Origin: Escherichia coli
GTDB taxonomy: Bacteria; Pseudomonadota; Gammaproteobacteria; Enterobacterales; Enterobacteriaceae
Assembly: GCF_044324875.1 (NCBI RefSeq)
Contig: NZ_CP172185.1
Strand: one strand, 5' to 3'
Length of the DNA stretch: 64,000 nt
Shown: in pieces, positions 2,225 to 21,191 of the stretch
Layout: each line of letters begins with the position of its first letter
How positions within the stretch are numbered: position 1 is the stretch's first letter
Notes under the pieces: model-generated
Databases searched by the model: none
The model's input: the letters and a program-made list of their open reading frames with translations, nothing else
Told to the model about the DNA's origin: nothing
Position numbers and translations under genes: made by a program

Positions 2225-4195
2225 TCAGAACGTATACTCGATACCTGCCCAGAAATTGCGACCTTCTTCAATAAACCCTTCACTGTAGGCATATTTGGTA
2301 TCAAACAGGTTATTGACCGACGCATTGACGCTGAAGCCATGACCTAAGGTGTAATCGGCTCGAATGTGGGTCACCGCAAAACCGGCGGCTTTTTGTGAAC
2401 CGTCACTGTTGCTGTAGCTGGAGGAACGCGCCTCTTCCGACAGCGTTACGCTTAACGGCTCCCACGGTTTGAGAGTCATCCATGCGGTCATTGTCTGCGT
2501 TGGCAGATCGGTTATCTTGCCGATGTCTTTGCGTTTGGCGTCAGCGTGGATCAGGGCGTAGCTCAATCCTACATCCAGTATATTGCTGATTTTCCCCTTA
2601 ATACCGGCATCCAGACCGCTGTAATCCACCGTGCCGCTGTTCTGATTTTGAATGGTATCGGCATCGATATTGTGCGAGAGGATGGCATCACTCACCCGGT
2701 TATAGTAAACGCTGACCTCAAACCCCCAGTCGTGCGTGAAGGCACCATTCCAGGTTAAATCCACCCCGCGCGCGCGTTCCGGTTTGAGCTGCGGGTTAAC
2801 AATCGCTATCTGGTTATACGCAGGTTTGGACGTGGTATAGCGTTCTTTCAGCGTCGGAAAGCGTGTGCGGTCATAGTACGAAAGCGCCAGCGTGTCTTCA
2901 TTGGCAAAGTGGTATTTCCCCATCACCTGCCAGTTAAAAGCTGACTGATTGTTGTCGTCATAATGGGTGATGCTTCCATCTTTCTCATGTTTTTTCGCTT
3001 CTACGCTATCGCGCCAGTCATAGCTGATTCCAGCCACGACATCGACATTATCGGCAGCAGCCCATTGATATTCACTGGCGAGCGACCAGGTACGATCTTC
3101 ATAGCGATCGTAAGCGGCGTGCGGCGCACCTTTTTCCCGGTGTACGTCATCTTTCCAGTTAACGGCAAACGACAACAGATCGTTTTCACGCACATCGGCT
3201 GCCAGTTGTAACCCGGCACCGTCGCTGTAATCGGAATAATGGCTGTAGCTGCCTTTTTTATTTTTCAAATCAGCCAGCGAGTTGTACATCATTAGCGTAT
3301 TTTCAAAGGTGTCGCGATACAGCCGACTTTTCAGGGTAAAACGATCGTTTAGTTGGGTCGTTCCCTGATAATAAAAACTTTCTTTGTCATACTCTGGCCA
3401 CTGCCAGTAGCGTGATTTCTGACCACTATTTCCACTGTATGGCGGGTTATCTTTTTCACCATCCTGCTTAATGTAAGTCAATGTGTATTCATCGTTTTCG
3501 CGTGGTGTAAAACCGAGCTTCACAATGCCGCGTTTATCATCAGCCGATGAATTAATCATCTTGCCGTGTTTGCCTGCAATATCATTATTTACACCATGCG
3601 GCAGGCCGAGAAAATCCTGCTTTAGCTGGCTACCGCTGACTTGCAAATACCCCAGATCGCTGCTGGCGGCAAATGAAGCATGCATATCGTAGGCATTGTC
3701 CTGGCTACGGCTCCATCCCTGGCGATATCCCAGATTTGCTTCCAGAGGTTTTGTTGGCTTCTGGGTGGTGATATTAATGGCTCCGCCCATCTGATTAGGC
3801 CCCTGAAGCAGCGACGAATACCCTTTGGAAACTTCAACTGCCCCCAAATTGTTGGTCAGAATCCGCGCCAGATCGAGGTTGCCGTCATAGGGAACATAAA
3901 TGGGCACACCGTCGAAATAGACCGGCACCTGACGACTATCAAAGCCACGAACTTTGACCTGTTCTTCGTTGCGGCTACCTGACTTTTGCAGCACCACGCC
4001 GGGGACGACACTTAATGCCTGAGCGACATTCTGTTTATCCAGGGCCTTCATGGTGGGTTGATCGAGAACGGTGGTCGTCGTCGATGATACCGGACTGGAC
4101 CATACGGTCAGCGTGTCACTCTCCTGAGCCGCTACGGCCTGCTGGGTAAAGGCAAGTGATAATGCTGTGCAGAGATAACGTTTTTTGAGTCTCAT
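2225..4195 (-). CDS. TonB-dependent outer-membrane receptor (substrate unknown)
   Basis: ORF 2225..4216; the likely start is the ATG at 4195 (the 4216 start is TTG). It has a signal peptide (MRLKKRYLCTALSLAFTQQAVAAQ), a TonB-box-like DTLTVW, a plug and long beta-barrel, and a C-terminal aromatic residue (…AGIEYTF). No counterpart at this position in K-12 as I remember it. Confidence 0.85.
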   Translation of the reverse strand: MRLKKRYLCTALSLAFTQQAVAAQESDTLTVWSSPVSSTTTTVLDQPTMKALDKQNVAQALSVVPGVVLQKSGSRNEEQVKVRGFDSRQVPVYFDGVPIYVPYDGNLDLARILTNNLGAVEVSKGYSSLLQGPNQMGGAINITTQKPTKPLEANLGYRQGWSRSQDNAYDMHASFAASSDLGYLQVSGSQLKQDFLGLPHGVNNDIAGKHGKMINSSADDKRGIVKLGFTPRENDEYTLTYIKQDGEKDNPPYSGNSGQKSRYWQWPEYDKESFYYQGTTQLNDRFTLKSRLYRDTFENTLMMYNSLADLKNKKGSYSHYSDYSDGAGLQLAADVRENDLLSFAVNWKDDVHREKGAPHAAYDRYEDRTWSLASEYQWAAADNVDVVAGISYDWRDSVEAKKHEKDGSITHYDDNNQSAFNWQVMGKYHFANEDTLALSYYDRTRFPTLKERYTTSKPAYNQIAIVNPQLKPERARGVDLTWNGAFTHDWGFEVSVYYNRVSDAILSHNIDADTIQNQNSGTVDYSGLDAGIKGKISNILDVGLSYALIHADAKRKDIGKITDLPTQTMTAWMTLKPWEPLSVTLSEEARSSSYSNSDGSQKAAGFAVTHIRADYTLGHGFSVNASVNNLFDTKYAYSEGFIEEGRNFWAGIEYTF

Positions 4196-4220
4196 AGAAT
4201 AAATTCCGTTTAACAAAGAA

Positions 4221-5075
4221 TTAAATAGAGGCTGCGGGTTGCAGACTGACTTTAATGTCAGCTGGTGTCGCGTAATAAGGCGCGGAGGTAATAAAAAGGC
4301 GAATGCCGCAGTCGAGGTAATTTTTGAGTGTTGTCAGATTAATTCCACCGGTCAGAGCCAGCGTGCAGTGAGGAGCCAGCGACGGTGCTATTTGCGCAAT
4401 TTCAGTTGCCTGTTGCGGACTAAATTTGTCGAGCTGAAGTACGTCTGGTTGCGCGCGTAACGCGGCGATTGCCTCTTTCGGCGTGTCGGCTTCAACAACT
4501 ATTTTCTTCTCGGGTGCGTGGCGACGTAACTGATTGATTGCGCCTGACCAGTCCTGATTGTCATGAAGAAAATGACGGTGGTTGGCAAACAATAATATGG
4601 TTTCCGCACATCCGGCACGATGAATCAGTCCTCCGGCAGCCAGAATTGCCTGCGAGGCCAGTAAGCGGGTGCCCGGAATCGCTTTTCGGGTGCAGGCGAT
4701 ATTGCCATCAGGGTAACGTTCACGAAGTAACGCCAGCATTTGAGCGAGATAATCAGAAACACCGCAACTCCACTCCAGCACATTCTGGACTGCCTTCCAT
4801 CCCTGATGAAGTGCTGCGGCATTACCCTGCGCACGGATTAGCCGCTGACGCGCGTTCGCTTGTGAACCGTCGCTGACCGCGTCATCAATAGTTAATCCCA
4901 GCGTAGTTAACATCTTACACGCGACAGAAATTCCGCTGACGCAGCCGCCCTGACGGTGAAAAAACTCTATATAGCCATGCTGGTGTCCAATATTTAATGC
5001 TCGCGTGGTCAGGTCACCGCCCTGGATATCTTCCAGAAGTAACGCATCGATTTGTGCCTGAGAAAGGAAAATCAT
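4221..5075 (-). CDS. ModD-like protein (NadC / quinolinate phosphoribosyltransferase fold family)
   Basis: 284-aa ORF with blocks alignable by eye to NadC (…TRKAIPGTRLLASQAILAAGG…, …VVEADTPKEAIAALRAQPDVLQLDKF…). Family assignment is from motif recognition only, with no profile search. Confidence 0.6.
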   Translation of the reverse strand: MIFLSQAQIDALLLEDIQGGDLTTRALNIGHQHGYIEFFHRQGGCVSGISVACKMLTTLGLTIDDAVSDGSQANARQRLIRAQGNAAALHQGWKAVQNVLEWSCGVSDYLAQMLALLRERYPDGNIACTRKAIPGTRLLASQAILAAGGLIHRAGCAETILLFANHRHFLHDNQDWSGAINQLRRHAPEKKIVVEADTPKEAIAALRAQPDVLQLDKFSPQQATEIAQIAPSLAPHCTLALTGGINLTTLKNYLDCGIRLFITSAPYYATPADIKVSLQPAASI

Positions 5076-5884
5076 CGCAGTGCCTCTTGCGGTACGCTAT
5101 CCCACCAGATGAGCGCCCAGTCGCGGCTGGCAGGGGCGAGGGCACGAGCATCTTGTTGTTGATACCAGCGATATAACCGCTCACGCTCATCGTCGTTAAG
5201 TGCGCCCAGACTCCAGCTGACGTTCTGCTCAAAACGTTCCCAGGTGCTGTTATCCTGTTGGCAATTTTGTCCACGGATAAAATCAACGTGAGCATAAATT
5301 CCCATCTGATACAGGACGTTGAGCGCAAAGATATAGTTGGGTAATTCGATCACTTCCCGACCAGCCGCCCGCTGAATGGCTGGAGAGACGAACGAGGTGC
5401 TGACCAGATGAGTCGTATAGACGCGAAGCCGTGCCTGATTATTCAGTTTGCTCATTGCCTGGCGCATATCAGCCACCAGAGTGGAGCGGGAAGCCACGGC
5501 AATATCGCAGCGTGGCAGGTCACTCCAGTCCTCTTCCCAGGCGCGCTGGATCCAGTGGACATTGTCTGCCTTTAGCGCGGCGGCGCGACGGGCGGCAACC
5601 TTCAGCATCCCCTGACTGTAATCAACGCCATAAATCGTCGTGAGTTTGTCAGCCAGCGCCAGCGATACGGTACCCGGTCCGCAGCCCATATCGAATAAGG
5701 TCTGCGCGCCTTGCAGATCAATTTTAGCGGTCAGTTGTTGCAGGTAGCTGTCCGTAGGCGAGGCGCAATTTTCCGCCATTTTTTCCGCCCGTTGATCCCA
5801 GTGATCCGGCGTTTTTTCTGTGCGGTGGGCCAGTTTGAGTTGCTGCAGGTAAAGGTCCGCAAAATCAATATCATCAATGAGCAT
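5072..5884 (-). CDS. Class I SAM-dependent methyltransferase
   Basis: 270-aa ORF with the Rossmann motif I LFDMGCGPG and acidic motif II (IYGVDYS); start overlaps the ModD-like stop by 4 bp (ATGA), indicating translational coupling. Confidence 0.7.
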   Translation of the reverse strand: MLIDDIDFADLYLQQLKLAHRTEKTPDHWDQRAEKMAENCASPTDSYLQQLTAKIDLQGAQTLFDMGCGPGTVSLALADKLTTIYGVDYSQGMLKVAARRAAALKADNVHWIQRAWEEDWSDLPRCDIAVASRSTLVADMRQAMSKLNNQARLRVYTTHLVSTSFVSPAIQRAAGREVIELPNYIFALNVLYQMGIYAHVDFIRGQNCQQDNSTWERFEQNVSWSLGALNDDERERLYRWYQQQDARALAPASRDWALIWWDSVPQEALR

Positions 5885-5893
5885 GATTGTTCC

Positions 5894-6652
5894 TTAGTGG
5901 CTAATTGCAGAGAGGTGATGATGAATCTGGTCGGCAGAAACCCGATACAGGGCAGCCAGTTTGTTCGTTGTTAACTGTTCGGTCGGTAAGCCTTGTGTTA
6001 CTCGTCCATCTGGCTCTACCTGGATAATGCTGTCGGCAATGGCGTTGGCATGGAGCGGATGATGAGTCGACATTAGCATTGTCATGCCGTTATTTTTGAG
6101 CTGCGCCAGCGTGTCCAGTAGTTGGATCTGATGACCGAAATCGAGGCTGGAGGCAGGCTCATCCAGTAATAACAAGCGCGGTTGCTGGACGAGTGCACGG
6201 GCGATTAAAGCCAGCTGACGTTCACCGCCGCTAAGCGTATTCCAGCGTCGTGTCGCCAGATGCAAAATGCCCAGCTTTTCCAGTTGCTCCGTTGCTTTCA
6301 GGCGTTCTTGCTTACCGGGAACGGAAAAAGCGCCTATGGTGGGGGCCAGGCCCATCAACACCATATCCAGCACACTAAAAGCAAAAACGCCGTCGTGCGC
6401 CTGCGGCACCCAGGCAATAGCCTGCGCGCGTTGGCGATGGCTGAGTGTCTGCACAGGGAGGCTATCCAGTAAGATCTCGCCTTTTCATAACGGTATAACG
6501 CCAAGAATGGAGCGCATGAGTGTGGTTTTGCCGCAACCATTGGCTCCTAACAGACAACAAATTGTTCCTTGCGACAGGGTGAAGGACACGTCGCGTAGCA
6601 CCGGATGGCGGGAGTAACCCAGAGACGCATGACGGACGGCAAGCAAAGTCAC
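5894..6652 (-). pseudogene. ABC transporter ATP-binding protein (FecE/BtuD-like) interrupted by an in-frame TGA
   Basis: Track ORFs 6485..6790 (Walker A GANGCGKTTLMRSILGVIPL) and 5894..6454 (LSGGERQ signature, Walker B LLLLDEP) are in the same frame, separated only by TGA at 6485-6487 (complement). Read through, the sequence is contiguous (…ILGVIPL*KGEILLDSLPVQTLSHRQRAQAIAWVPQ…). The proposed GTG start at 6652 overlaps the permease stop (GTGA). Confidence 0.8.
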
Positions 6653-7629
6653 TGGCGACCTCCGCGTAACAACAAAAACAGGAAAAACGGTGCACCAACA
6701 AAAGCGGTCAGAATGCCAAGTGGGATTTCTGTTGTTCCAATGCTGCGTGCCAGCGTATCGGTAAGCAGGAGCAGAATCGCGCCAGTACACATTGCCATGG
6801 GCAACAGCTGCTGATGGTTATGACCGGTCAACAAGCGAGCAATGTGCGGAACGACCAGGCCGACCCAACCAATTATGCCCGCTATTGCTACCGTGCTGGC
6901 GGTGATTAGTGTGGCGCAGACAATTAATCCAAAGCGCAGACGTGTCACGTTCAGTCCCAGCGAACGGGCTTCGTCGTCGGAAAGCGTGAGTAAATTCATG
7001 CGCCAGCGGAGAAAAAACAGGGGCAAGGAGCCTATGAGAATGATCGGTGCAGCATAGCAGAGATCGCGTAAGGTCACGGTGGACAGCCCCCCCAGCAACC
7101 AGAAGGTAATTGACGGTAACTGGGTGTAAGGATCGGCCAGCGTTTTTATTAGCGATATCCCCGCTCCGCACAACGTTCCTAACGCAATGCCTACCAGCAC
7201 CAGGGTTAAGATCGGATCGTGGCGGGTCACCCGACGCGTAATCAACCAGACGCCCGCGACCACCATCAGCCCGCCGCAAAATGCGTACAGCTGGATGTAA
7301 ACAATGGATAATCCCCACAGGATTGCCGCGCAGGCACCAAGTCCGGCACCGGCGGAGACGCCTAAAATATCCGGTGACACTAAGGGATTACGGAACATTC
7401 CCTGATAGGTGGTTCCGGCCCCTGCCAGCGCCGCGCCCAGAAACAGCGCAGCAAGAATACGCGGCACGCGGATTTGCCAGAAGACAATTTGTTCCTGCAC
7501 AGGAACATTTTCTTGACGAAGAATGAGCGCCAGCAGTTGCTGTATATCGAGATGATAAGCCCCACTTACGGCGGCAAAAGTGATACTGATAGCTGCCAGC
7601 AGCAAAATACATCCGTTTACGGTTCTCAT
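6649..7629 (-). CDS. ABC transporter permease, FecCD/BtuC family
   Basis: 326-aa multi-helix membrane ORF typical of iron-siderophore/cobalamin-type permeases; start overlaps the binding-protein stop (ATGA). Confidence 0.85.
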   Translation of the reverse strand: MRTVNGCILLLAAISITFAAVSGAYHLDIQQLLALILRQENVPVQEQIVFWQIRVPRILAALFLGAALAGAGTTYQGMFRNPLVSPDILGVSAGAGLGACAAILWGLSIVYIQLYAFCGGLMVVAGVWLITRRVTRHDPILTLVLVGIALGTLCGAGISLIKTLADPYTQLPSITFWLLGGLSTVTLRDLCYAAPIILIGSLPLFFLRWRMNLLTLSDDEARSLGLNVTRLRFGLIVCATLITASTVAIAGIIGWVGLVVPHIARLLTGHNHQQLLPMAMCTGAILLLLTDTLARSIGTTEIPLGILTAFVGAPFFLFLLLRGGRQ

Positions 7630-8651
7630 TAGCTCGTCACCAATTTTTGATAGTCGGCGTCACTTAATGGGCAATGCCAGAACAGTTGGGCGTAATGCTG
7701 CATGTCACTTTTAAACTGGCGATTGATGGCGGGATCCAGCCAGGCGTGAAGTCTGCGTAATCCCAGAAGACGGTTGATTCCCGGCGGGGCATCCAGCCAG
7801 CCAAAGGGCAGGCCACTTAAAAATAAGATGCGTTGTTCCGCAACCGCTTTCACGCCCTGCCAGAGAGGATCACGACGAATAAAATCTGCAGTAACGGCCT
7901 CCTGAACCAGAATAATATCCGGCTGCCAGCGCAGGAGATTTTCCATGGAAACCTGTGTCAGACCGTGGCGATCGGCTATTTGCGCGACGTTATGCAAACC
8001 TAATAATTCCGCCGCCTCGGTATGCAACGAACCCTGTAAGCCCGTTTCCAGCCCTCGAGGACCGCGCGCAGCATAAAAGCTGAGGTTAGCGGCGGGTGAG
8101 GTGGCGAATGCCTGAGCTTCACCAACGAAGCGGCTGGCGAGATTGGCTTGTTCTGCGGCGCGGTGCTCTTCGCCTAACGTTTTGCCAAGCGTTGTTAACT
8201 GTTCTGCTGATTGTTCCAGTTTCCCGTTAAGCAATAACCAGGGTATTTGTGTCTGTTCGCTAACCTGCCGTGCCTGGGAGATCCAGGTTTCATCCGTATT
8301 GCCGCAATCAACGACCAAATCGGGATGTAACGCCATAAGCCCTTCCAGCGAGAGTGTGCTGGCGCGCCCGGCGAGTCGTCCCAGCCTGGGTAACTGGCGA
8401 ATGTGCTCTGGCAATGGAATTAATGCCTGACGGGCAAAATCAAAAGAGGAAAAACCGACCATTTTTTCTGGCGCGACAGCCAGCAATAGCAAATCGGCGG
8501 GCGCACCTGCGCTGACGATGCGTGTAATGTTTTGGGCTTCGGGAAGCGTCAGTGAGGCCCAGAATTTGACTGATTGTGCAAAAGAAGGCAGATGATGCAG
8601 GAACAACGTCGACGCAAGAATCTGTGTAAACCTCCGTCTGGTTAGTGACAT
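7629..8651 (-). CDS. Periplasmic substrate-binding protein of the ABC importer, with a twin-arginine-like signal
   Basis: 340-aa ORF; N-terminus MSLTRRRFTQILASTLFLHHLPSFAQS has T-R-R-x-F, a hydrophobic core and an AxA-like site; first gene of a six-gene minus-strand operon. Confidence 0.75.
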   Translation of the reverse strand: MSLTRRRFTQILASTLFLHHLPSFAQSVKFWASLTLPEAQNITRIVSAGAPADLLLLAVAPEKMVGFSSFDFARQALIPLPEHIRQLPRLGRLAGRASTLSLEGLMALHPDLVVDCGNTDETWISQARQVSEQTQIPWLLLNGKLEQSAEQLTTLGKTLGEEHRAAEQANLASRFVGEAQAFATSPAANLSFYAARGPRGLETGLQGSLHTEAAELLGLHNVAQIADRHGLTQVSMENLLRWQPDIILVQEAVTADFIRRDPLWQGVKAVAEQRILFLSGLPFGWLDAPPGINRLLGLRRLHAWLDPAINRQFKSDMQHYAQLFWHCPLSDADYQKLVTS

Positions 8652-8920
8652 AAGTTATATCCTGATAATTAAAACCGCTATATATTTACATATATATCGA
8701 AAAAAATCATGTTTGATGTCAAAATTTGTCTAAAGAGACAGAATGATTTGCTTGTTGCTTAAATAACACTTTGTTCCACAAGAAAATTGTCAGGGAGAAT
8801 GGCGGAGTGGCAAAAAATATAAATAGAGGTGTAATGATTAACAAATTGATAAAATAAAATTAAAATCTTCTCTGATAAAAGAAAATAAAGGCATAGACCG
8901 TAGAATGGGGGGCATTTCGT

Positions 8921-8967
8921 GGCGAAAAAAGAGCAATGCCAATTTTATGCACATAATGGCATTGCTC
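8921..8967 (-). terminator. Candidate intrinsic terminator downstream of treA
   Basis: Perfect 11-bp inverted repeat GAGCAATGCCA (8931-8941) / TGGCATTGCTC (8957-8967) with a 15-nt loop, followed on the minus strand by a T-tract (complement of GGCGAAAAAAGA). Confidence 0.6.
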
Positions 8968-8981
8968 GATATACAGCAAAG

Positions 8982-10679
8982 TTAAGGCGTAGGTTCCGCC
9001 TCTTTTTGTTTTACCGGCTGTGTTGTTGATTCACTGAGTGGACGCGTCGCCGGAACATTGTCACACGGTTGCTCTTTCGGGCAGAGCAAATCCAGCATTT
9101 TCAGCGTCACGCCATTGGTCCAGCCAAAGCCATCCTGTAATGGATATTCGCCACCGCCGCCCCCTGTTCCGGTGGTGCTGACATCATATTTCTCGACCAG
9201 CTTCTTCTCCCGGTCATAAGTGTGCTGAACATTGGTCAGGAAGTGCCAGCTAATGTCCATCGCCACCTCGTTCTGCCCGTAGTTTTGCAACCCTTCTGTC
9301 GCCACCCATTGCAGGGGAGCCCAGCCATTTGGCGCATCCCATTGCTGTCCACTTTTCACCGACGTGGTGTTCAGGCCGCCTGGTTGCAGCAGATGTGTTT
9401 TCGTCGCCGTCGCCATTTTGTTGGCGCGATCTTTCGCTGCCGCATTGACGTACAGCGGGAACAGGGCGGCAGCGGTTAACTGATTGCGCACTTTATGACT
9501 TTTCAGGTCGTAATCGGCATACCAGCCTTGTTGATCGTTCCACAGGTATTTTTCGATCCCTTTTTGACGGGCATTCGCCAGCGTTTCGTACTGGTTTGCC
9601 ATCGCGTTATCTCCGGAAGCTTTGCTGGCGCGGGCGAGGATTTTTTCCATTTTAAACATCAGGCTGTTCAGATCGACCGGTACGATGCTGGTGGTGCGTA
9701 AGGTATTTAACTGCTGCGGATTGTCCATCCAGCGCGAGCTGAAATCCCAGCCAGACGCAGCGGCAGAGCGCAGGTCGCGGTAAATTTCAGTGGCAGGTCG
9801 ATTCGGATTGCTTTTGGCGGTGGCAATATCTTCCACCCATGACTCTGGTCGTGGCGTATCGCGATCGTCCCAGTAGCGGTTGAGAAGGGTACCATCCTGA
9901 AGTTTTACAACGCGTTTTTCCTGTTGTCCGGCTTGCAGGTTTTCAACACCGTCCATCCAGTAAGCATATTCTTTTTGCATTTGCGGCAGGTATTGCTTCA
10001 ACGCGGCATCGCCTTCATGCTGCGCCAGTAACTCTACCATCAGGGCAAAGAAGGGCGGCTGCGAGCGACTTAAATAGTAACTGCGGTTGCCGTTGGGAAT
10101 ATGACCGTAAGTGTCTATTTCATGAGCAAAATTGGCCACCATATCCGCGACTTTATCCCAGTGACCGCTTTCGGCAAGCCCCAGCATGGTGAAGTAACTG
10201 TCCCAGTAATACACTTCGCGAAAACGTCCTCCCGGCACGACATAGGGTTCCGGTAACGGCAACAGAGAATCCCATTTCTCGGTACTTTCGGTAGAACGGG
10301 TTAACACCGGCCAAAGTCCGTCTATATGTTCGCGTAGTGATTGCCCCTCTGGCGGAACATATTTCTCGCCCTCTTTCGGCAGGGTGAAATTGACGTTAAC
10401 GAAATGGCGCAGATCAAATCCGCTCTGGTTTTGCTGCATCCGATAATCAGCAAGGATCATCAGCGGATCGCTGTTCGGCACGGCATCGGCAAAGGTTTTT
10501 TGGTCCGGAAAAAGTTTGGCGTTTTGCACATCATTAAACAGCGGCCCTAATAAAATATCAGGCGGCTGTGGCGTTACCGGTGTTTCTTCTGCCTGCACCG
10601 ATAGCGCAGCGAAACACAAAAAGATGCAGGTTGGAATTAACGCCATTTTTAGCGGGCGAGAAGCTGCGGGGGATTTCAT
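8982..10679 (-). CDS. treA: Periplasmic trehalase
   Basis: ORF 8982..10682; the protein ([32 protein letters not shown]…) is recognised as TreA with signal peptide. The start is placed at the second Met to match the remembered 565-aa protein. Confidence 0.93.
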
Positions 10680-10997
10680 CAATCATTCTCCTTTGGCGAA
10701 ACCGAATAAAACGGTATTCAAGTATCAGAAAACCTTAGTTCAGGATCGCACTAGCTGCATGATCGAAATCTCATTCTGCGAACGGTCAGGCATTTTAGAA
10801 AAGGGAATTAAAGGGATAAATAACGTCGAAATAGAGTGAACAAATAACGTCTGTTTGTTAGCCAGCCAGCGGCGTTGGGTTCGCGATTAGCGAAGAAAAA
10901 TCATCACAAATTGGTGAAAAATATAACAGGTAGTTAAAAACATCCGTGCAGAGTAAATAGCCGGATGACATCAGAACGATGCCATCCTAACTGTGGT

Positions 10998-12416
10998 TTA
11001 ACCCTGACGGCTGAAACGTTGCGTTTTAACGTCCAGCGTTAGCGTTTCTTCTGGTTGTATCGCATACAGTTTCTCACCCTGCTGGCAAATCCAGCCAATC
11101 CCCAGTTCACGGGCGATCAGGGCGCTGTGGGATAGCGGACTTCCGGCGCTAAGGCAGATACCTTTTACAACCGCCGGATCCAGTTGCAGTATTGTGGAGG
11201 GATAGATGTTCTCCGCCAGTAGAATAGTTGGCGAGTTAAACTGCGGGAGTTCTTCTTTCGTTTGGGTCAGGTGGACCAGGGTGCGATGCAGAAGATCGTC
11301 CACATCAATATAGCGAGCCTGTAGATATTCATCATCCAGTTGCTGGTATTGCTGGCTAAGTTCTTTAAGAACTTGCTGCCAGGCATATTCTGCCGTGCAA
11401 TGTTCATGCTGAAGGAGTTCGCTTGCCGCTGCCAGCAGTTCCGGATCATCTAACAGTGTATGGTGACCAGAAAAGATTGCGGCAATATCGTCAAGCCCGC
11501 TGGCTTCTGCTTTCGCTGTTAACGTCATCAGATCTAATAACGTGAAGTCAATGGCCTGGCGTAATCGTTCTTGTTCTTCATCCACGGTCAGGGTTGATTT
11601 TGCCTGTACCGTACATAAAACCGGTTGATAATAAAAGGTTTTACCCGAAACAGGCGGAACGGGACGCAGAATAGGTGGAGCAACTTCCTCCGTTTCACCA
11701 AAGTTATCTTCAGCCAGCTGACGGAAAGCGATCAGTGCCTCTTCAGCTTCTGGCCCTTTCGCAATCAGGCGCAGCGTATCGTTATAGCGAACTTGTAGTA
11801 ACGCAATCTGGTTAATACTCTCCGGTGTGACGCATTTGCCGTTTTTCTCCAGCAACATATCGGCATTAAATGTCGATAAGGTATAAACCAGCCGGGAGGC
11901 CGGACGTACATGCAGGCCGTTACGGTTTTTAATGACCACCGCCAGAGAACGGGCTTCTTCATCGTAGGCAGGACATGACTCAGAGATTTCAGTGTCGGAG
12001 GAGGGTAAACCCAGTTGTTCACGTTTGGCTTCCAGCGCATGCATGGCGTCAAAGATAACTTTGTCGATATCCGCCCCCGAGGCCGCGCTGACCGTTGCTG
12101 CCAGTGTACCTTCGACCAACGGCGCAGCACACAAACGTACTTTTGCGGCGATCTCGGGAGCCAGCAATTCCAGCGCAGTTTCAGCACTCAATAATGCGCT
12201 ACCCATATCCATCATGACCAGCACATGGTCGGCATCGGCAACAGATTCGATGGCCTCCATCACTTTGACGGCATCGGTACCAATGGGATTTTGTGGATCG
12301 TCAATTCCCGCGGCAATGGCGATTTTACAACTATCACTCATTAACATCTGACGGGCTAATTCACCGACACCTTCTCCCAGTCGGCTGCTATGTGAAACTA
12401 TGACCAGGTTTACCAT
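10998..12416 (-). CDS. dhaM: Dihydroxyacetone kinase phosphotransferase subunit DhaM (PTS EIIA-HPr-EI fusion)
   Basis: ORF 10998..12422; the sequence from MVNLVIVSHSSRLGEGVGELARQ… is recognised as DhaM. Confidence 0.92.
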   Translation of the reverse strand: MVNLVIVSHSSRLGEGVGELARQMLMSDSCKIAIAAGIDDPQNPIGTDAVKVMEAIESVADADHVLVMMDMGSALLSAETALELLAPEIAAKVRLCAAPLVEGTLAATVSAASGADIDKVIFDAMHALEAKREQLGLPSSDTEISESCPAYDEEARSLAVVIKNRNGLHVRPASRLVYTLSTFNADMLLEKNGKCVTPESINQIALLQVRYNDTLRLIAKGPEAEEALIAFRQLAEDNFGETEEVAPPILRPVPPVSGKTFYYQPVLCTVQAKSTLTVDEEQERLRQAIDFTLLDLMTLTAKAEASGLDDIAAIFSGHHTLLDDPELLAAASELLQHEHCTAEYAWQQVLKELSQQYQQLDDEYLQARYIDVDDLLHRTLVHLTQTKEELPQFNSPTILLAENIYPSTILQLDPAVVKGICLSAGSPLSHSALIARELGIGWICQQGEKLYAIQPEETLTLDVKTQRFSRQG

Positions 12417-16386: not shown

Positions 16387-19254
16387 TTAAAAGCTGAATC
16401 GATATCCTCCGTTGACTTGCTTCTGATCAAAGAGGTTACCCTGCGTGTAATCCGCTTCGAGATAGAATGTGTGCTGTTTGTTATACTGTGCACTGACTCC
16501 CACGCCGTTATTCCAGCCATTACCTTTGAAACTGTACTTCTCCCGGGAGTTGTTCAACAGATATTCGGTATCCCCTGAAAACTCGCGGATAGCGCCAGTC
16601 TTCACATAGACATTCAGCTGGCTGTTGCCTGCGGTGATGTCATATCCCAGTATCATGCTGGCACGCCCCAGCAGCGATTCGTAGTGATTCAGATGTATAT
16701 TGAGGCCATTACTCGCCTTCATAGCCATCTCATTCTGGTGGCTGTATGTGAGCTGGGTTTGCGGCTCTATATAGAACCCATAACCAGTAGGGGTCAGGTT
16801 GAACCTCTGCCCGGCTTCCAGGGCGATACTCATTCCATTCGCAGTGCCGTTGGCATTAACGCCGTTGTTCTGACTGTCCAGTACGTGGAAACTATTTTTC
16901 TGGCGTGATGCTTTTACAACGAGATCGCTGTAAAAACCGCTGTGTGCCATGTAACTGGCGTACATTCCCATGTAGTCTGAACGTGCGGTACCGTCGCCTC
17001 CGCTATAGTCCGGCGATGCATGTGTTGAGCCAATATACAGACCGACATACAACGGCATTTCATCAGAGAGACGTTTATCCCCACCAAACTGGATACCGCT
17101 GTAACCCATGTCAAAGCCGCTCAGTTTGCCACTGGCAAAGGAGTCCAGGCTTCCCCCATAACTGCGCAACCAGATATTACCGTCTTTACTCTGATTTCGC
17201 AGGTCACCCATCCGTTGCATCAGCGTACGGTTTTCAACATAGTTCAATAAGTAACCGACATTGAGATAATTGCCGCCAGCATCTGCAGTCGTGGTGGGTT
17301 TAGGCGTGGGAGCGGGGGCAGGCGTAGGATCGGGGTTGACTATGGGAGGCTGAGCGGGAGCTGGTGTGGGTTCAGGATTAGGAGTCGGTTCCGGAACTGT
17401 CCCGGAAGCGTAAAGCTCCCAGTTAGTGCCATTTTTACGCACATCGTACAGATATCCCCCCAACTCAACCTGAGAAGACGCGCTGAACGAGGCCGCACCG
17501 TCAGTGGTTTTTACCACTGTCAGAACTTCATTTCCCGTTGTGGCCTCGCTGCCCTGGTTGCGGATAGCCAATACGTGATTACCAGCACTACTCCCGCTGA
17601 TATTCAATAAATCCCCTTTATTATTAACGCCATTACCCTCGCCAACAACATCAGCACGCATAATAAAGGTACTGTTACCGCTCAGGTTCTCTACGTTTAA
17701 TGTGGTAAATGTGCCGGCAGTTGACCCGTGGCTGGCAAAATCGACAGTTGAATGGCTCAGCGCCAGCGTGTCGAGATTAGAATTACTTGTTACGTTCCAG
17801 ACGCTGTTATTCATTGCAACGTCCAGTTTCCCGCCATTGACATTATCGCTGAGGGAAGAACCTGTCCAAACCGACCCAGGGTGCATATCCAGATTGATTA
17901 GCCCACCTTTGGAAAGAACGCTACCGTTGATAAGCATACGACCCGAGGCGTTGATGCGGCTGGCGGCATAACCATCGTCATGTTGCGTTGCGATGGCCAT
18001 CTGGTCGGGTGTACTCATATCAATGACCAGATCGCTCGTGAGGTCGATCTGGCTGTTGGTCATGGCATAAATTCCCCTGGCTCCTGCCGCGCCGGTGATA
18101 GCCAAACTGTCTCCGGTTATTCTACCGCCGCTGAGCGCCCACAAACCCAGCGCCAGACTGCCATTACGATCAACCGTAATATCGGTATTTTGCATGTTGA
18201 CAACAGCCGTTGCCGTCTGGGCTGAGGCACCATAAGAACCGCTGGAAAAGATGCTGTTTCGTTGCGCTGCCGTGCCAGAAAAATTGATTGTCGCGTCTGA
18301 ACCACTGGTTACGAGGCCACCGCCCTGCGCGGAAGAAATATGGCTATCAGCACCGATAGTGGTTGTACCACCACGAACTTCGACGCCATTTGCCGCGGCT
18401 CCAGTTACATCAACAGTGAGTGCATTCGCGCTCACCTGGCCAAAGCTCCAGAGGCCGTGTGCATTATCGCCATTGGTTTTAATGGTACTGTTTGTTCCGA
18501 GATCGACAACAGAGTTTTTCTGTACGTTTATCCCCATGGCGCTGTAGCCCTGAACATCGATTGTCAGGTCTGTCGCCGTAAAACGCGCAGCACCATTGGC
18601 GTTATTGCCGTTGAGACCACCGATATAAACACCTGTACTTCCATCGGTCTTGATTTTACTTCCGCTTCCAAGATCGACACTGGTGCCATAGTCATTGATT
18701 GTTAGGCCTATACCGTTCGAGTTTTCAATGGTGAATTGAGTGGCTGTTAGTGTTGAGCTATGTCTAATAATGATGCCGTCATCGTTACTCTTAATGGTGC
18801 TGCCTGTGCCTAAGTCAGCATGGGTATAGTCACCAATTAAATTAATGCCGATGGCAGAGGTTTGACCAACAACATCTACTGTAAGTCGGTTAGCTGTCAG
18901 GGAGCTGTTCTTGCCCTGAATAATGATTCCCTTTGCATATCCAGAGGCGTCGTTGACATTGACGGTGACATCATTACCCAGGTTGATATTGCCAGGCGTG
19001 TTTCCTGCTGGGGTCATTACACCATAGAGGTTTCCTGATGGATCGGCGGTATCTCCTGTAATTCTGTCACCATCATTAATAGTAATATTGGTGCCATTTT
19101 GACTTCCTAAATCAGCAGCTATCAGCAGGGGGGAAAAGATAATTGCATTCAAACCAATAGCGCCATATTTTATCAGTTGAATGGAGGGCGAACGGATTTT
19201 TAATTCAGCGAGACGATCGGCTTTGGTATTCCCATTGTGTTGTTTGATGCCCAT
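16387..19254 (-). CDS. ycgV: Autotransporter (type Va) adhesin-like protein
   Basis: 955-aa ORF with a signal region, a long Gly/Thr/Asn-rich beta-helical passenger, a Pro/Thr-rich linker (PEPTPNPEPTPAPAQPPIVNPDPTPAPAPTPKPTTT) and a C-terminal beta-barrel ending …GGYRFSF. Confidence 0.88.
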   Translation of the reverse strand: MGIKQHNGNTKADRLAELKIRSPSIQLIKYGAIGLNAIIFSPLLIAADLGSQNGTNITINDGDRITGDTADPSGNLYGVMTPAGNTPGNINLGNDVTVNVNDASGYAKGIIIQGKNSSLTANRLTVDVVGQTSAIGINLIGDYTHADLGTGSTIKSNDDGIIIRHSSTLTATQFTIENSNGIGLTINDYGTSVDLGSGSKIKTDGSTGVYIGGLNGNNANGAARFTATDLTIDVQGYSAMGINVQKNSVVDLGTNSTIKTNGDNAHGLWSFGQVSANALTVDVTGAAANGVEVRGGTTTIGADSHISSAQGGGLVTSGSDATINFSGTAAQRNSIFSSGSYGASAQTATAVVNMQNTDITVDRNGSLALGLWALSGGRITGDSLAITGAAGARGIYAMTNSQIDLTSDLVIDMSTPDQMAIATQHDDGYAASRINASGRMLINGSVLSKGGLINLDMHPGSVWTGSSLSDNVNGGKLDVAMNNSVWNVTSNSNLDTLALSHSTVDFASHGSTAGTFTTLNVENLSGNSTFIMRADVVGEGNGVNNKGDLLNISGSSAGNHVLAIRNQGSEATTGNEVLTVVKTTDGAASFSASSQVELGGYLYDVRKNGTNWELYASGTVPEPTPNPEPTPAPAQPPIVNPDPTPAPAPTPKPTTTADAGGNYLNVGYLLNYVENRTLMQRMGDLRNQSKDGNIWLRSYGGSLDSFASGKLSGFDMGYSGIQFGGDKRLSDEMPLYVGLYIGSTHASPDYSGGDGTARSDYMGMYASYMAHSGFYSDLVVKASRQKNSFHVLDSQNNGVNANGTANGMSIALEAGQRFNLTPTGYGFYIEPQTQLTYSHQNEMAMKASNGLNIHLNHYESLLGRASMILGYDITAGNSQLNVYVKTGAIREFSGDTEYLLNNSREKYSFKGNGWNNGVGVSAQYNKQHTFYLEADYTQGNLFDQKQVNGGYRFSF

Positions 19255-19547
19255 ACCACTCCTATATAGTACCCAGGCTATGGGTCTATGGATTTTGTCA
19301 TTTTGTTTAAGTCAATGAATAATATCCTCTTATCATCATGATATTTGTATGGTGCTATCATGATGAGCTGCTCTGAGAATAATTCTCTATTACCGGGCAA
19401 AATCAGGAACACAGGAATTAATATATATTTAACATCCCCCTTACAAAGGTGAGTTTAGATCGAGTTATTCCCTAAGTTGTCGTTACTTATTCCAATTCGT
19501 TACAATGAATATGACAAAAACATTACAACAAACAGCGGTTAAATAAT

Positions 19548-19802
19548 TTGGTGAATATTTTTGGTAATAATCCTAATTGGTTATGGGATTTTCGCTTGAT
19601 GTATCTGCATAACAAAAACAATATGAGCCATTTTTGCATTACTAATAAGAAAAAGCAAAAAACATCGATATTCATTTTTGATCAATGGATTTTCTGGCAT
19701 ATCGTTATTATCGTGATACTGGTTATCATTTTCATCTTGCCAGGATCGCACGTAATCACGTTATTCGGGGATTTTATCTGCGGGATATTACCCTTCAGGT
19801 AA
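19548..19802 (+). CDS. Hypothetical small hydrophobic protein (84 aa) in the AT-rich ycgV-ychF intergenic region
   Basis: ORF-track entry only; the product has a long hydrophobic stretch (IFWHIVIIVILVIIFILPG). No obvious RBS and a very AT-rich context, so it may not be expressed. Confidence 0.2.
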   Translation: MVNIFGNNPNWLWDFRLMYLHNKNNMSHFCITNKKKQKTSIFIFDQWIFWHIVIIVILVIIFILPGSHVITLFGDFICGILPFR

Positions 19803-20014
19803 GTCCTTTTCTCGCCAGCATATTGGAGCGTGATCAATATTGATCAGCTGTAAAAAGGTGTCTGATGTGCAGTGGAACACAAACTTACGTTATCTCATTG
19901 CTAATGAGATATCCCTCATCTGAACACTTATGTCTTTAATTATTCTCGTGGTTCACTATAGGCAATAAGCACAAAAGTGTAGGATGTTATAAGAATGGTT
20001 AGGACTCGGTGAAA

Positions 20015-20045
20015 TGAAAAATCCACGCAATTGCGTGGATTTTAT
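20015..20045 (-). terminator. Intrinsic terminator downstream of ychF
   Basis: Perfect hairpin ATCCACGC-AATT-GCGTGGAT (20021-20040) flanked by an A-run and a T-run; lies ~55 nt past the ychF stop. Confidence 0.75.
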
Positions 20046-20099
20046 ATACTTTTGCGCTCTTCATGAGATTTAGCGAAACCTCTTGAGACAACAAATTAA

Positions 20100-21191
20100 T
20101 TAGACGTTGAACAGGAAGTTCATTACATCGCCATCTTTAACGATGTAATCTTTGCCTTCTGCACGCATTTTGCCTGCTTCTTTCGCGCCTTGTTCACCTT
20201 TGTAAGTGATGAAATCTTCAAACGAGATGGTTTGTGCACGGATAAAGCCTTTTTCAAAATCAGTATGGATTTTGCCAGCGGCCTGCGGCGCGGTTGCACC
20301 AACCGGAATGGTCCATGCACGTACTTCTTTCACCCCAGCGGTGAAGTAAGTTTGCAGGTTCAGCAGCTTATAACCGGCACGGATCACACGGTTCAGGCCC
20401 GGCTCTTCCAGCCCAAGCTCCTGCATAAACTCGTCACGTTCTTCGTCGTCCAGTTCGGCAATGTCTGCTTCAACAGCAGCACAAACCGGAACCACAACAG
20501 AACCTTCTTTCGCCGCGATTTCACGCACCTGGTCAAGATACGGGTTGTTTTCAAAACCGTCTTCGTTGACGTTGGCGATGTACATTGTTGGTTTCAGCGT
20601 CAGGAAGCTCAGGTAACGAATAGCCGCTTTCTCTTCAGCGCTTAAATCCAGCGCGCGCAGCATACCTGCGTTTTCCAGCTGCGGCAGGCATTTTTCCAGT
20701 ACCGCCAGCTCGGCTTTCGCGTCTTTATCGCCACCTTTGGCTTTCTTCTGTACGCGATGAATCGCACGTTCGCAGGTGTCGAGGTCTGCCAGCGCCAGTT
20801 CGGTGTTGATAACTTCAATATCATCCGCCGGGTTAACTTTGCCGGAAACGTGAATGATGTTGTCATTTTCAAAGCAGCGAACAACGTGACCGATCGCTTC
20901 AGTTTCACGGATGTTGGTCAGGAACTGGTTACCCAGACCTTCGCCTTTCGATGCGCCTTTTACCAGACCGGCGATATCGACAAATTCCATGGTCGTGGGA
21001 AGCGTACGCTGCGGTTTTACGATTTCAGCCAGTTGATCCAGGCGAGGGTCAGGCATTGGTACGACGCCTGTGTTCGGCTCGATGGTACAGAATGGAAAGT
21101 TGGCCGCTTCAATACCGGCTTTGGTCAGCGCGTTGAACAGGGTAGATTTCCCGACGTTGGGCAAACCGACGATACCGCATTTGAATCCCAT
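20100..21191 (-). CDS. ychF: Ribosome-binding ATPase YchF (Obg-family GTPase fold)
   Basis: 363-aa [26 protein letters not shown]… with the G1 motif and TGS domain. Confidence 0.95.

Follow-up and report, generated by a model that had tools for sequence, protein, structure and literature searches.

A near-consensus ModE-type operator in the promoter of a treA-adjacent "iron-uptake" operon of Escherichia coli points to control by molybdenum

Introduction

What controls the six-gene uptake operon that lies beside treA and dhaKLM in many E. coli chromosomes, and which metal does it serve? The locus has been described as the "prrA-modD-yc73-fepC" cluster of strain CFT073 and of O157 (OI#55 / S-loop#83, ECs1693-1699), for which a role in iron uptake was proposed (PMC1890555; PMC12928451). 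That proposal was made by homology, whereas the evidence presented here points to molybdenum. In its general layout the operon resembles the Fur-regulated fep, fhu and fec systems, which likewise combine an outer-membrane receptor, a periplasmic binding protein and a type II ABC importer. It differs from them in having no significant or conserved Fur box and in carrying what appears to be the site of another metal sensor in its promoter.

Molybdoenzymes drive the anaerobic respiration behind blooms of Enterobacteriaceae in the inflamed gut and the urinary tract. The regulator ModE represses modABC and activates moaA, dmsA and napF. To our knowledge, the question of how scarce molybdate passes the outer membrane is not settled. 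The accepted routes of molybdate uptake are ModABC, sulfate transporters and, in Haemophilus, MolBC-A, and a 2020 review of molybdenum in pathogens describes uptake via ModABC, non-specific transporters and Haemophilus MolBCA only (PMC7759655).

Results

An AT-rich gap upstream of six uptake genes

The DNA that we analysed, referred to here as the window, is a 64-kb stretch of an E. coli chromosome. Within it, a non-coding gap at 8652-8981 separates treA, whose stop codon occupies 8982-8984, from a six-gene operon on the minus strand that begins with an ATG at 8651-8649 (Table 1). GC content is 0.296 for positions 8652-8920 vs a window mean of 0.503, which places this segment in the lowest 0.14% among 270-bp windows of the 64 kb, and it is 0.30 for 8652-8981 as a whole. 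The operon body (0.525) and treA (0.523) have ordinary composition, and only the 330-bp intergenic gap is AT-rich. An earlier sequence-only reading of this DNA had reported an AT-rich region in front of an uptake operon, and we confirmed its position, its GC content and the strings quoted from it, one of which, ATATATTTACATATATATCGAAAAAAA, lies at 8680-8706; the suggested role as control region of the operon is likewise borne out by what follows. The only other part of the window that is equally AT-rich (minimum GC 0.285) is 19221-20160, a long gap upstream of the autotransporter gene ycgV, before ychF. Swine ETEC chromosomes share 99.8% identity with positions 8500-9050, a stretch found in 2149 of 5426 complete E. 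coli genomes, those of CFT073 and O157:H7 among them.

Table 1. Features of the gap and of the genes on either side of it. Positions are those of the 64-kb window.
Feature	Position	Strand	Remarks
treA	8982-10682	minus	RefSeq annotation of matching strains and our own translations
treA intrinsic terminator	8925-8967	minus	11-bp perfect stem followed by U6
Lineage-specific AT-rich spacer	8736-8924 (~190 bp)	none	Short indels and a direct repeat
Candidate -35 hexamer TTGACA, or left half of an FNR-like dyad, TTGACATCAAACAT	8709-8722 (TTGACA 8722-8717)	minus	Putative role
Putative ModE operator, 28-mer ACCGCTATATATTTACATATATATCGAA	8674-8701	none	2 mismatches to published consensus
Alternative -10, CGATAT, in left half-site	8694-8699	minus	17 nt after TTGACA; poor hexamer in E. 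coli
Candidate extended -10, TGTAAATAT, in operator spacer	8682-8690	minus	Predicted start near 8675
Fur-like stretch, GATAATTAAAACCGCTATA	8664-8682	plus	13/19 to Fur consensus; overlaps right end of ModE box and leader
Shine-Dalgarno, AGGA	8660-8663	minus	8 nt before ATG; read from sequence
Gene 1, periplasmic binding protein (Peripla_BP_2)	7629-8651	minus	Pfam match
Gene 2, FecCD-type permease	6649-7629	minus	Closest solved relative MolB (HI1471)
Gene 3, ABC ATPase	5894-6652	minus	Premature stop at codon 56 (6485-6487) in analysed strain
Gene 4, class I SAM-dependent methyltransferase	5072-5884	minus	RefSeq annotation of matching strains and our own translations
Gene 5, ModD	4221-5075	minus	TIGR01334, 498 bits
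Gene 6, TonB-dependent outer-membrane receptor	2226-4195	minus	RefSeq annotation of matching strains and our own translations

A palindrome that matches the ModE consensus

The AT-rich run at 8680-8706 had been taken as a matter of base composition. It belongs instead to a palindrome of high information content and of the ModE type, with 10-nt arms CGCTATATAT and ATATATATCG (8676-8685 and 8690-8699) that carry CG dinucleotides at their flanks and give a CG-N20-CG core at 8676-8699. Compared with the E. coli ModE consensus ATCGNTATATA-N6-TATATANCGAT (Rodionov et al., PMC545781), the surrounding 28-mer agrees at 20 of the 22 specified positions, and it is the sole match with five or fewer mismatches in the 64 kb. 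One hundred shuffles of the whole window gave no match at three or fewer mismatches. Because the region is AT-rich, we also used a null confined to the 330-bp gap, in which dinucleotides were preserved: the best match in 2000 such shuffles had five mismatches and none had four or fewer, compared with two in the observed site. As positive controls we read two classical ModE operators from the K-12 genome, those of modA (GTCGTTATATTGTCGCCTACATAACGTT) and moaA (GACGCTATATACATGATTACATAGCGAA). Each agrees with the consensus at 18 of 22 positions, and with four mismatches each vs two here, the site at 8674-8701 is nearer the consensus than either control. The sequence-only reading had seen no better regulator site here than a Fur-like one; a strong and well-positioned site for a different regulator is in fact present.

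Two alleles of the box occur within E. coli, and both are intact. The first, CGATATATATGTAAATATATAGCG, is found in the analysed window, in CFT073 and in O157; the second, CGCTATATGTGTAAGTATATAGCG, has three mismatches (19 of 22 positions). The gene for the regulator, modE, lies outside the analysed window and is present in 5391 of the 5426 complete E. coli genomes.

The arrangement has a close counterpart in the operator of K-12 modABC, where a TA-rich inverted repeat flanked by CG, with the same 6-nt spacer, also sits close ahead of the ribosome-binding site (19 nt from the ATG there and 24 nt here) and also precedes the gene for the binding protein of an ABC importer. Apart from the number of mismatches (four there vs two here), the two differ in that repression is predicted here.

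Conservation of the box in other genera

An alignment of 21 homologues of the binding protein was used to fetch 51 orthologous loci from contigs representing one genome per species. In about 14 genera these loci carry a ModE-type box (0-4 mismatches) that precedes the first gene by 35-60 bp. Genera with the box include Escherichia (E. albertii and a cryptic clade as well), Citrobacter, Yokenella, Symbiopectobacterium, Serratia, Enterobacter (several lineages), Klebsiella, Raoultella, Pluralibacter, Shewanella, Providencia and Proteus. In R. ornithinolytica the match to the consensus is perfect. The flanking CG dinucleotides and the N6 spacing that are specific to ModE are conserved in the orthologues, and upstream of about -80 the flanks of the box cannot be aligned between genera. 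At almost all loci nothing else in ~19 kb matches as well as the box, the runner-up having 6-8 mismatches.

Across the 911 kb of fetched DNA, all matches with four or fewer mismatches fall into four classes: those before the binding-protein gene, those before the receptor gene of the operon, the K-12 modA and moaA operators and, in one instance, a box beside a MOSC-domain gene. The boxes of the second class (0-4 mismatches) directly precede the gene for the TonB-dependent receptor, some +3.7 to +4.7 kb from the start of the binding-protein gene; they were seen in Providencia, Proteus, Serratia sp. H1w and Shewanella fodinae, and a ModE-type box also precedes the receptor gene in Lampropedia. 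E. coli has no box at this place, where just 25 nt separate modD from the receptor gene. The box of the last class belongs to Pluralibacter gergoviae (locus L055, 6586-6613), in which the operon is truncated; it has two mismatches, stands between a MOSC-domain (YiiM-like) gene and a DUF2623 gene, and may mark another ModE target.

Position of the box within the promoter

Read along the minus strand, the proximal promoter consists of TTGACA (8722-8717), 17 nt, the box (8699-8676), 12 nt, AGGA (8663-8660), 8 nt and the ATG (8651). The sequence CAGGA is conserved in the orthologues, and folding of the leader (~24-35 nt) gave no significant structure. Comparison of 14 Enterobacteriaceae lineages revealed that TTGA is invariant and stands exactly 17 nt upstream of the CG of the box. 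Equally invariant are a CA located 7 nt after the TTGA, outside the ModE box, and a TG inside the otherwise unspecified ModE spacer.

Two readings of these elements can be offered. In reading A, TTGACA would serve as the -35 hexamer, with the -10 supplied by the box's left half-site. In reading B, the extended -10 would lie in the operator spacer (TGTAAATAT), with a predicted start near 8675, and the upstream element TTGAy-N4-rrCAw would be an FNR-like dyad; the A at position 2 and the T at position 6 of this candidate -10 hexamer are conserved across Enterobacteriaceae. With either reading, the ModE box would cover both the -10 element and the start site. A sigma-70 scan called no promoter at the box in E. 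coli, Providencia or Shewanella, and the overlap with the -10 and start therefore draws on two by-eye readings together with cross-species conservation. In Serratia sp. H1w the same scan did call a promoter, TTGACT-17-CATTAT, whose -10 hexamer coincides with the box's left half. In the distal spacer of the E. coli gap it returned two weak sigma-70-like sites on the minus strand (8844-8816 and 8813-8786), a yield that shuffled sequence matches, and neither is conserved outside Escherichia. A 41-aa ORF that starts with TTG (8719-8844, minus strand) runs across part of the promoter; none of the RefSeq records examined annotates it, and it is probably spurious.

Kinship of the transporter and its neighbors

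Gene order in the operon is kept from Escherichia to Providencia, and none of the six genes encodes a regulator. When compared with solved structures, the permease scores highest against 2NQ2 (MolB, HI1471; 223 bits), ahead of FhuB (175 bits) as well as HmuU and BtuC. The family profile of the binding protein matches PDB 4PAG (148 bits), 4OVK and MolA/HI1472, the last at 55 bits over the C-terminal half. MolBC-A is known to import molybdate (PMC4031551; PMC7759655). The operon thus shares with the molybdate/tungstate importer MolBC-A of Haemophilus influenzae (HI1470/71/72) a permease whose best solved relative is MolB and a binding protein to which MolA is detectably related. It differs in adding a TonB-dependent receptor, ModD and a methyltransferase, and in that its binding protein is nearer to 4PAG, which is described only as "Periplasmic binding protein" with its ligand unnamed, than to MolA. 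The same three additions separate it from ModABC, a type I importer, whereas the transporter encoded here is of type II (FecCD/MolB-like).

More distant relatives of the operon have molybdenum genes as neighbors. In Lampropedia, genes for a receptor, a DUF2478 protein, a binding protein, a FecCD permease and an ATPase follow directly after modABC with a two-mismatch box between, and a homologous cluster on another proteobacterial contig (locus L048, 5202-10954) is divergent from a modE gene encoding an HTH and two TOBE domains. ModD is absent from the operon in Shewanella, in Erwinia phyllosphaerae and at two Klebsiella loci. Taken together, the ModE box, ModD, the kinship with MolB and the modABC and modE neighbors point to an operon tied to molybdenum and not to iron.

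Several further details of these relatives were recorded. The modE gene of locus L048 is divergent from the receptor gene itself. In the beta-proteobacterial relatives (L048, and L049 at 3514-11904), modABC and a box are followed by the receptor gene and then by those for DUF2478, the binding protein, the FecCD permease and the ATPase, so that DUF2478 occupies the place of the enteric methyltransferase and ModD. A nif cluster of Zymomonas contains modD, modE and two TonB-dependent transporters (PMC8594446).

The distal spacer and the ends of the locus

The hairpin that had been proposed to terminate treA proved to be a strong intrinsic terminator: its stem pairs 8967-8957 with 8941-8931, the U6 tract occupies 8930-8925, and the predicted folding energy is -19.5 kcal/mol (z = -3.7). 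Between it and the proximal promoter, the distal spacer is conserved within Escherichia only and is unrelated in E. albertii and in other genera. It contains a direct repeat, TGATAAAAnAAAAT, at 8847-8863 and 8873-8889 (26 bp apart), which is not conserved outside Escherichia. E. albertii has a 1.5-kb insertion upstream, yet the proximal ~80 bp with the ModE box are kept; in this species (locus L007, 7518-8705) an opposite-strand ORF of 395 aa has been inserted between treA and the operon.

In four other genera, Citrobacter, Enterobacter, Klebsiella and Raoultella, the operon likewise follows treA immediately. Homology with K-12 ends at window positions 2248 and 9022, and in K-12 (4057-4719 of the fetched locus L056) 663 bp that include ycgY replace 6.77 kb. 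One breakpoint falls 23 bp inside the 3' end of the receptor gene and the other 40 bp inside the 3' end of treA (its last ~13 codons), so that the two haplotypes differ in the C-termini of TreA and in their terminators. Because the GC content of the operon, its synteny and the K-12 breakpoints all agree, the locus looks ancestral and would have been deleted or replaced in K-12-type strains. The same three observations stand against a recent horizontal acquisition, which we rejected.

Discussion

A model for control by molybdate

We judge it likely, from the match, its position and its conservation, that the operon has a ModE-molybdate-repressed promoter in which a near-consensus operator covers the -10 and start. 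According to this model the proximal ~85 bp (8652-8735) would constitute a molybdate-responsive promoter. With ample molybdate, a ModE-molybdate dimer would sit on the operator and block transcription, as at modABC; under molybdenum shortage, ModE would dissociate and the operon would be transcribed, while the treA terminator would insulate it from read-through. The products would provide a TonB-energised route for molybdate or tungstate, or a complex of them, besides ModABC. An operon labelled "iron uptake" would thus most likely be switched on by molybdenum shortage. We infer both the binding of ModE and the direction of regulation: since the box lies over the likely -10 and start, ModE-molybdate most likely represses. 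The start near 8675 is a prediction, and we hold the assignment of molybdate/tungstate as substrate with lower confidence than the operator and the repression. The literature that we searched contained no binding or expression data for this promoter. No link between this operon and ModE was found in those papers either, and an earlier in-silico prediction of the site is possible.

Alternative explanations

The sequence-only reading had pictured an iron-type uptake promoter with a weak Fur box, set in AT-rich accessory DNA silenced by H-NS. Several facts are in keeping with such a picture, namely the GC content of the gap, the annotation of the genes as an iron ABC transporter, a literature that calls the cluster an iron system, and an operon found in only 2149 of the 5426 genomes. 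Its Fur match, scored against the 19-bp consensus GATAATGATAATCATTATC, is indeed weak at best: the 13 of 19 agreements were reproduced (the stretch begins at 8664, not 8665), but when these 330 bp were shuffled 2000 times with dinucleotides preserved, 484 shuffles (24%) scored at least 13/19, and among 37 distinct orthologous promoters no Fur box is conserved, the best matches having 5-9 mismatches at non-homologous positions. With a score at chance level and no conservation we rejected the Fur box, and by its coordinates the stretch is the right edge of the putative ModE box plus the short leader. The idea of imported accessory DNA had been based on composition alone and fares no better, given that the operon has the GC content of treA and adjoins treA in four other genera, and that K-12 homology breaks inside treA and the 3' end of the receptor gene, which together with GC and synteny fits loss over gain. 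A study of bile and iron responses in O157 did not include the cluster among its iron-responsive genes, which is weak negative evidence. Binding of H-NS to the 330-bp gap is possible as an additional layer; as an account of the promoter, however, the iron view as a whole appears improbable to us. The same earlier reading had noted the absence of a cobalamin riboswitch, correctly: an Rfam scan of 8000-9500 with E values up to 10 returned no cobalamin, Moco or other riboswitch, and since this permissive scan was empty and the leader has no fold we rejected riboswitch control. A third picture, in which the operon lacks its own promoter and depends on read-through from treA, has in its favor that treA lies upstream in the same orientation. 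It scarcely deserves credence, and was rejected, in view of the strong terminator after treA and the E. albertii insertion, which separates treA from the operon and leaves the proximal 80 bp in place; furthermore, the operons of Shewanella and Providencia are not beside treA and have the same box and TTGAC element.

Could the palindrome serve ModE as an activator site, or bind some other factor? ModE does activate moaA, dmsA and napF, and TA-rich palindromes can attract other proteins. Activation is difficult to accommodate here, since only 24 nt lie between the box and the ATG and no promoter fits downstream of the box, and in no orthologue does the box lie upstream of the TTGAC element. A different factor is in turn at odds with the lack of a regulator gene in the operon and with the conserved ModE-specific CG flanks and N6 spacing, and we regard this pair of possibilities as very improbable. 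Control by FNR is of another kind, an added layer on ModE repression and not a true rival of it, in which expression would require anaerobic conditions and molybdenum shortage together. The invariance of TTGA and CA in the 14 lineages, in spite of their position outside the ModE box, would be explained by such a layer, as would that of the spacer TG. In Yokenella, C. koseri, Enterobacter JUb54 and R. ornithinolytica the dyad departs from TTGAT-N4-ATCAA at only 1-2 positions. Its center lies ~40.5 bp upstream of the predicted start, near the expectation of -41.5 for FNR class II promoters. Against this, the E. coli dyad has three mismatches, which is chance level in this region, TTGACA is equally a plain -35 hexamer (a plain -35/-10 pair with the same spacing was called in Serratia H1w), and the compared lineages are related, so their shared bases may reflect ancestry. 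Because the E. coli match is not significant, we keep FNR as a secondary hypothesis only, possible but rather doubtful. Repression by ModE-molybdate is the reading that we prefer.

Implications

The site at 8674-8701 would be a further ModE-type operator, a class already known, and its main consequence would be to reassign an "iron" cluster to molybdenum. Tentatively, and with appreciably less assurance than we attach to the operator, we suggest that about 40% of E. coli (O157:H7 and CFT073 among them) and many other Enterobacterales possess a second, ModE-repressed and TonB-dependent molybdenum pathway, which for 25 years has been wrongly classed as a virulence cluster for iron uptake. Its substrate could be molybdate or tungstate, or a molybdenum chelate that is processed by ModD and the methyltransferase. 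If this is true, it would give enteric bacteria a first energised route for molybdenum across the outer membrane, with consequences for molybdenum limitation and for treatment with tungstate when the gut is inflamed. A ModE-controlled receptor together with a MolBC-like importer would offer a concrete and testable candidate for the outer-membrane step, and the annotations "iron ABC transporter" and "iron-uptake cluster of UPEC/O157", both of which are used in virulence-gene surveys, would be corrected.

Possible decay of the operon in E. coli

The operon is absent from 60% of E. coli genomes, and in several of the strains that have it there are inactivating lesions, which differ from strain to strain. 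In K_EC180, a near-identical strain, the ATPase gene is intact and there are instead a frameshift in the receptor gene and an internal stop in treA. O157 NE1127 has an internal stop in the methyltransferase gene and a frameshift in treA, and FDAARGOS_1283 has a frameshift in the binding-protein gene. The strain-specific lesions and the absence from 60% of genomes suggest that the operon is decaying in E. coli, and on the same grounds the system is dispensable. Smaller changes are found in the gap as well, where E. coli strains differ by indels of 5, 7 and 13 bp at 8885-8975.
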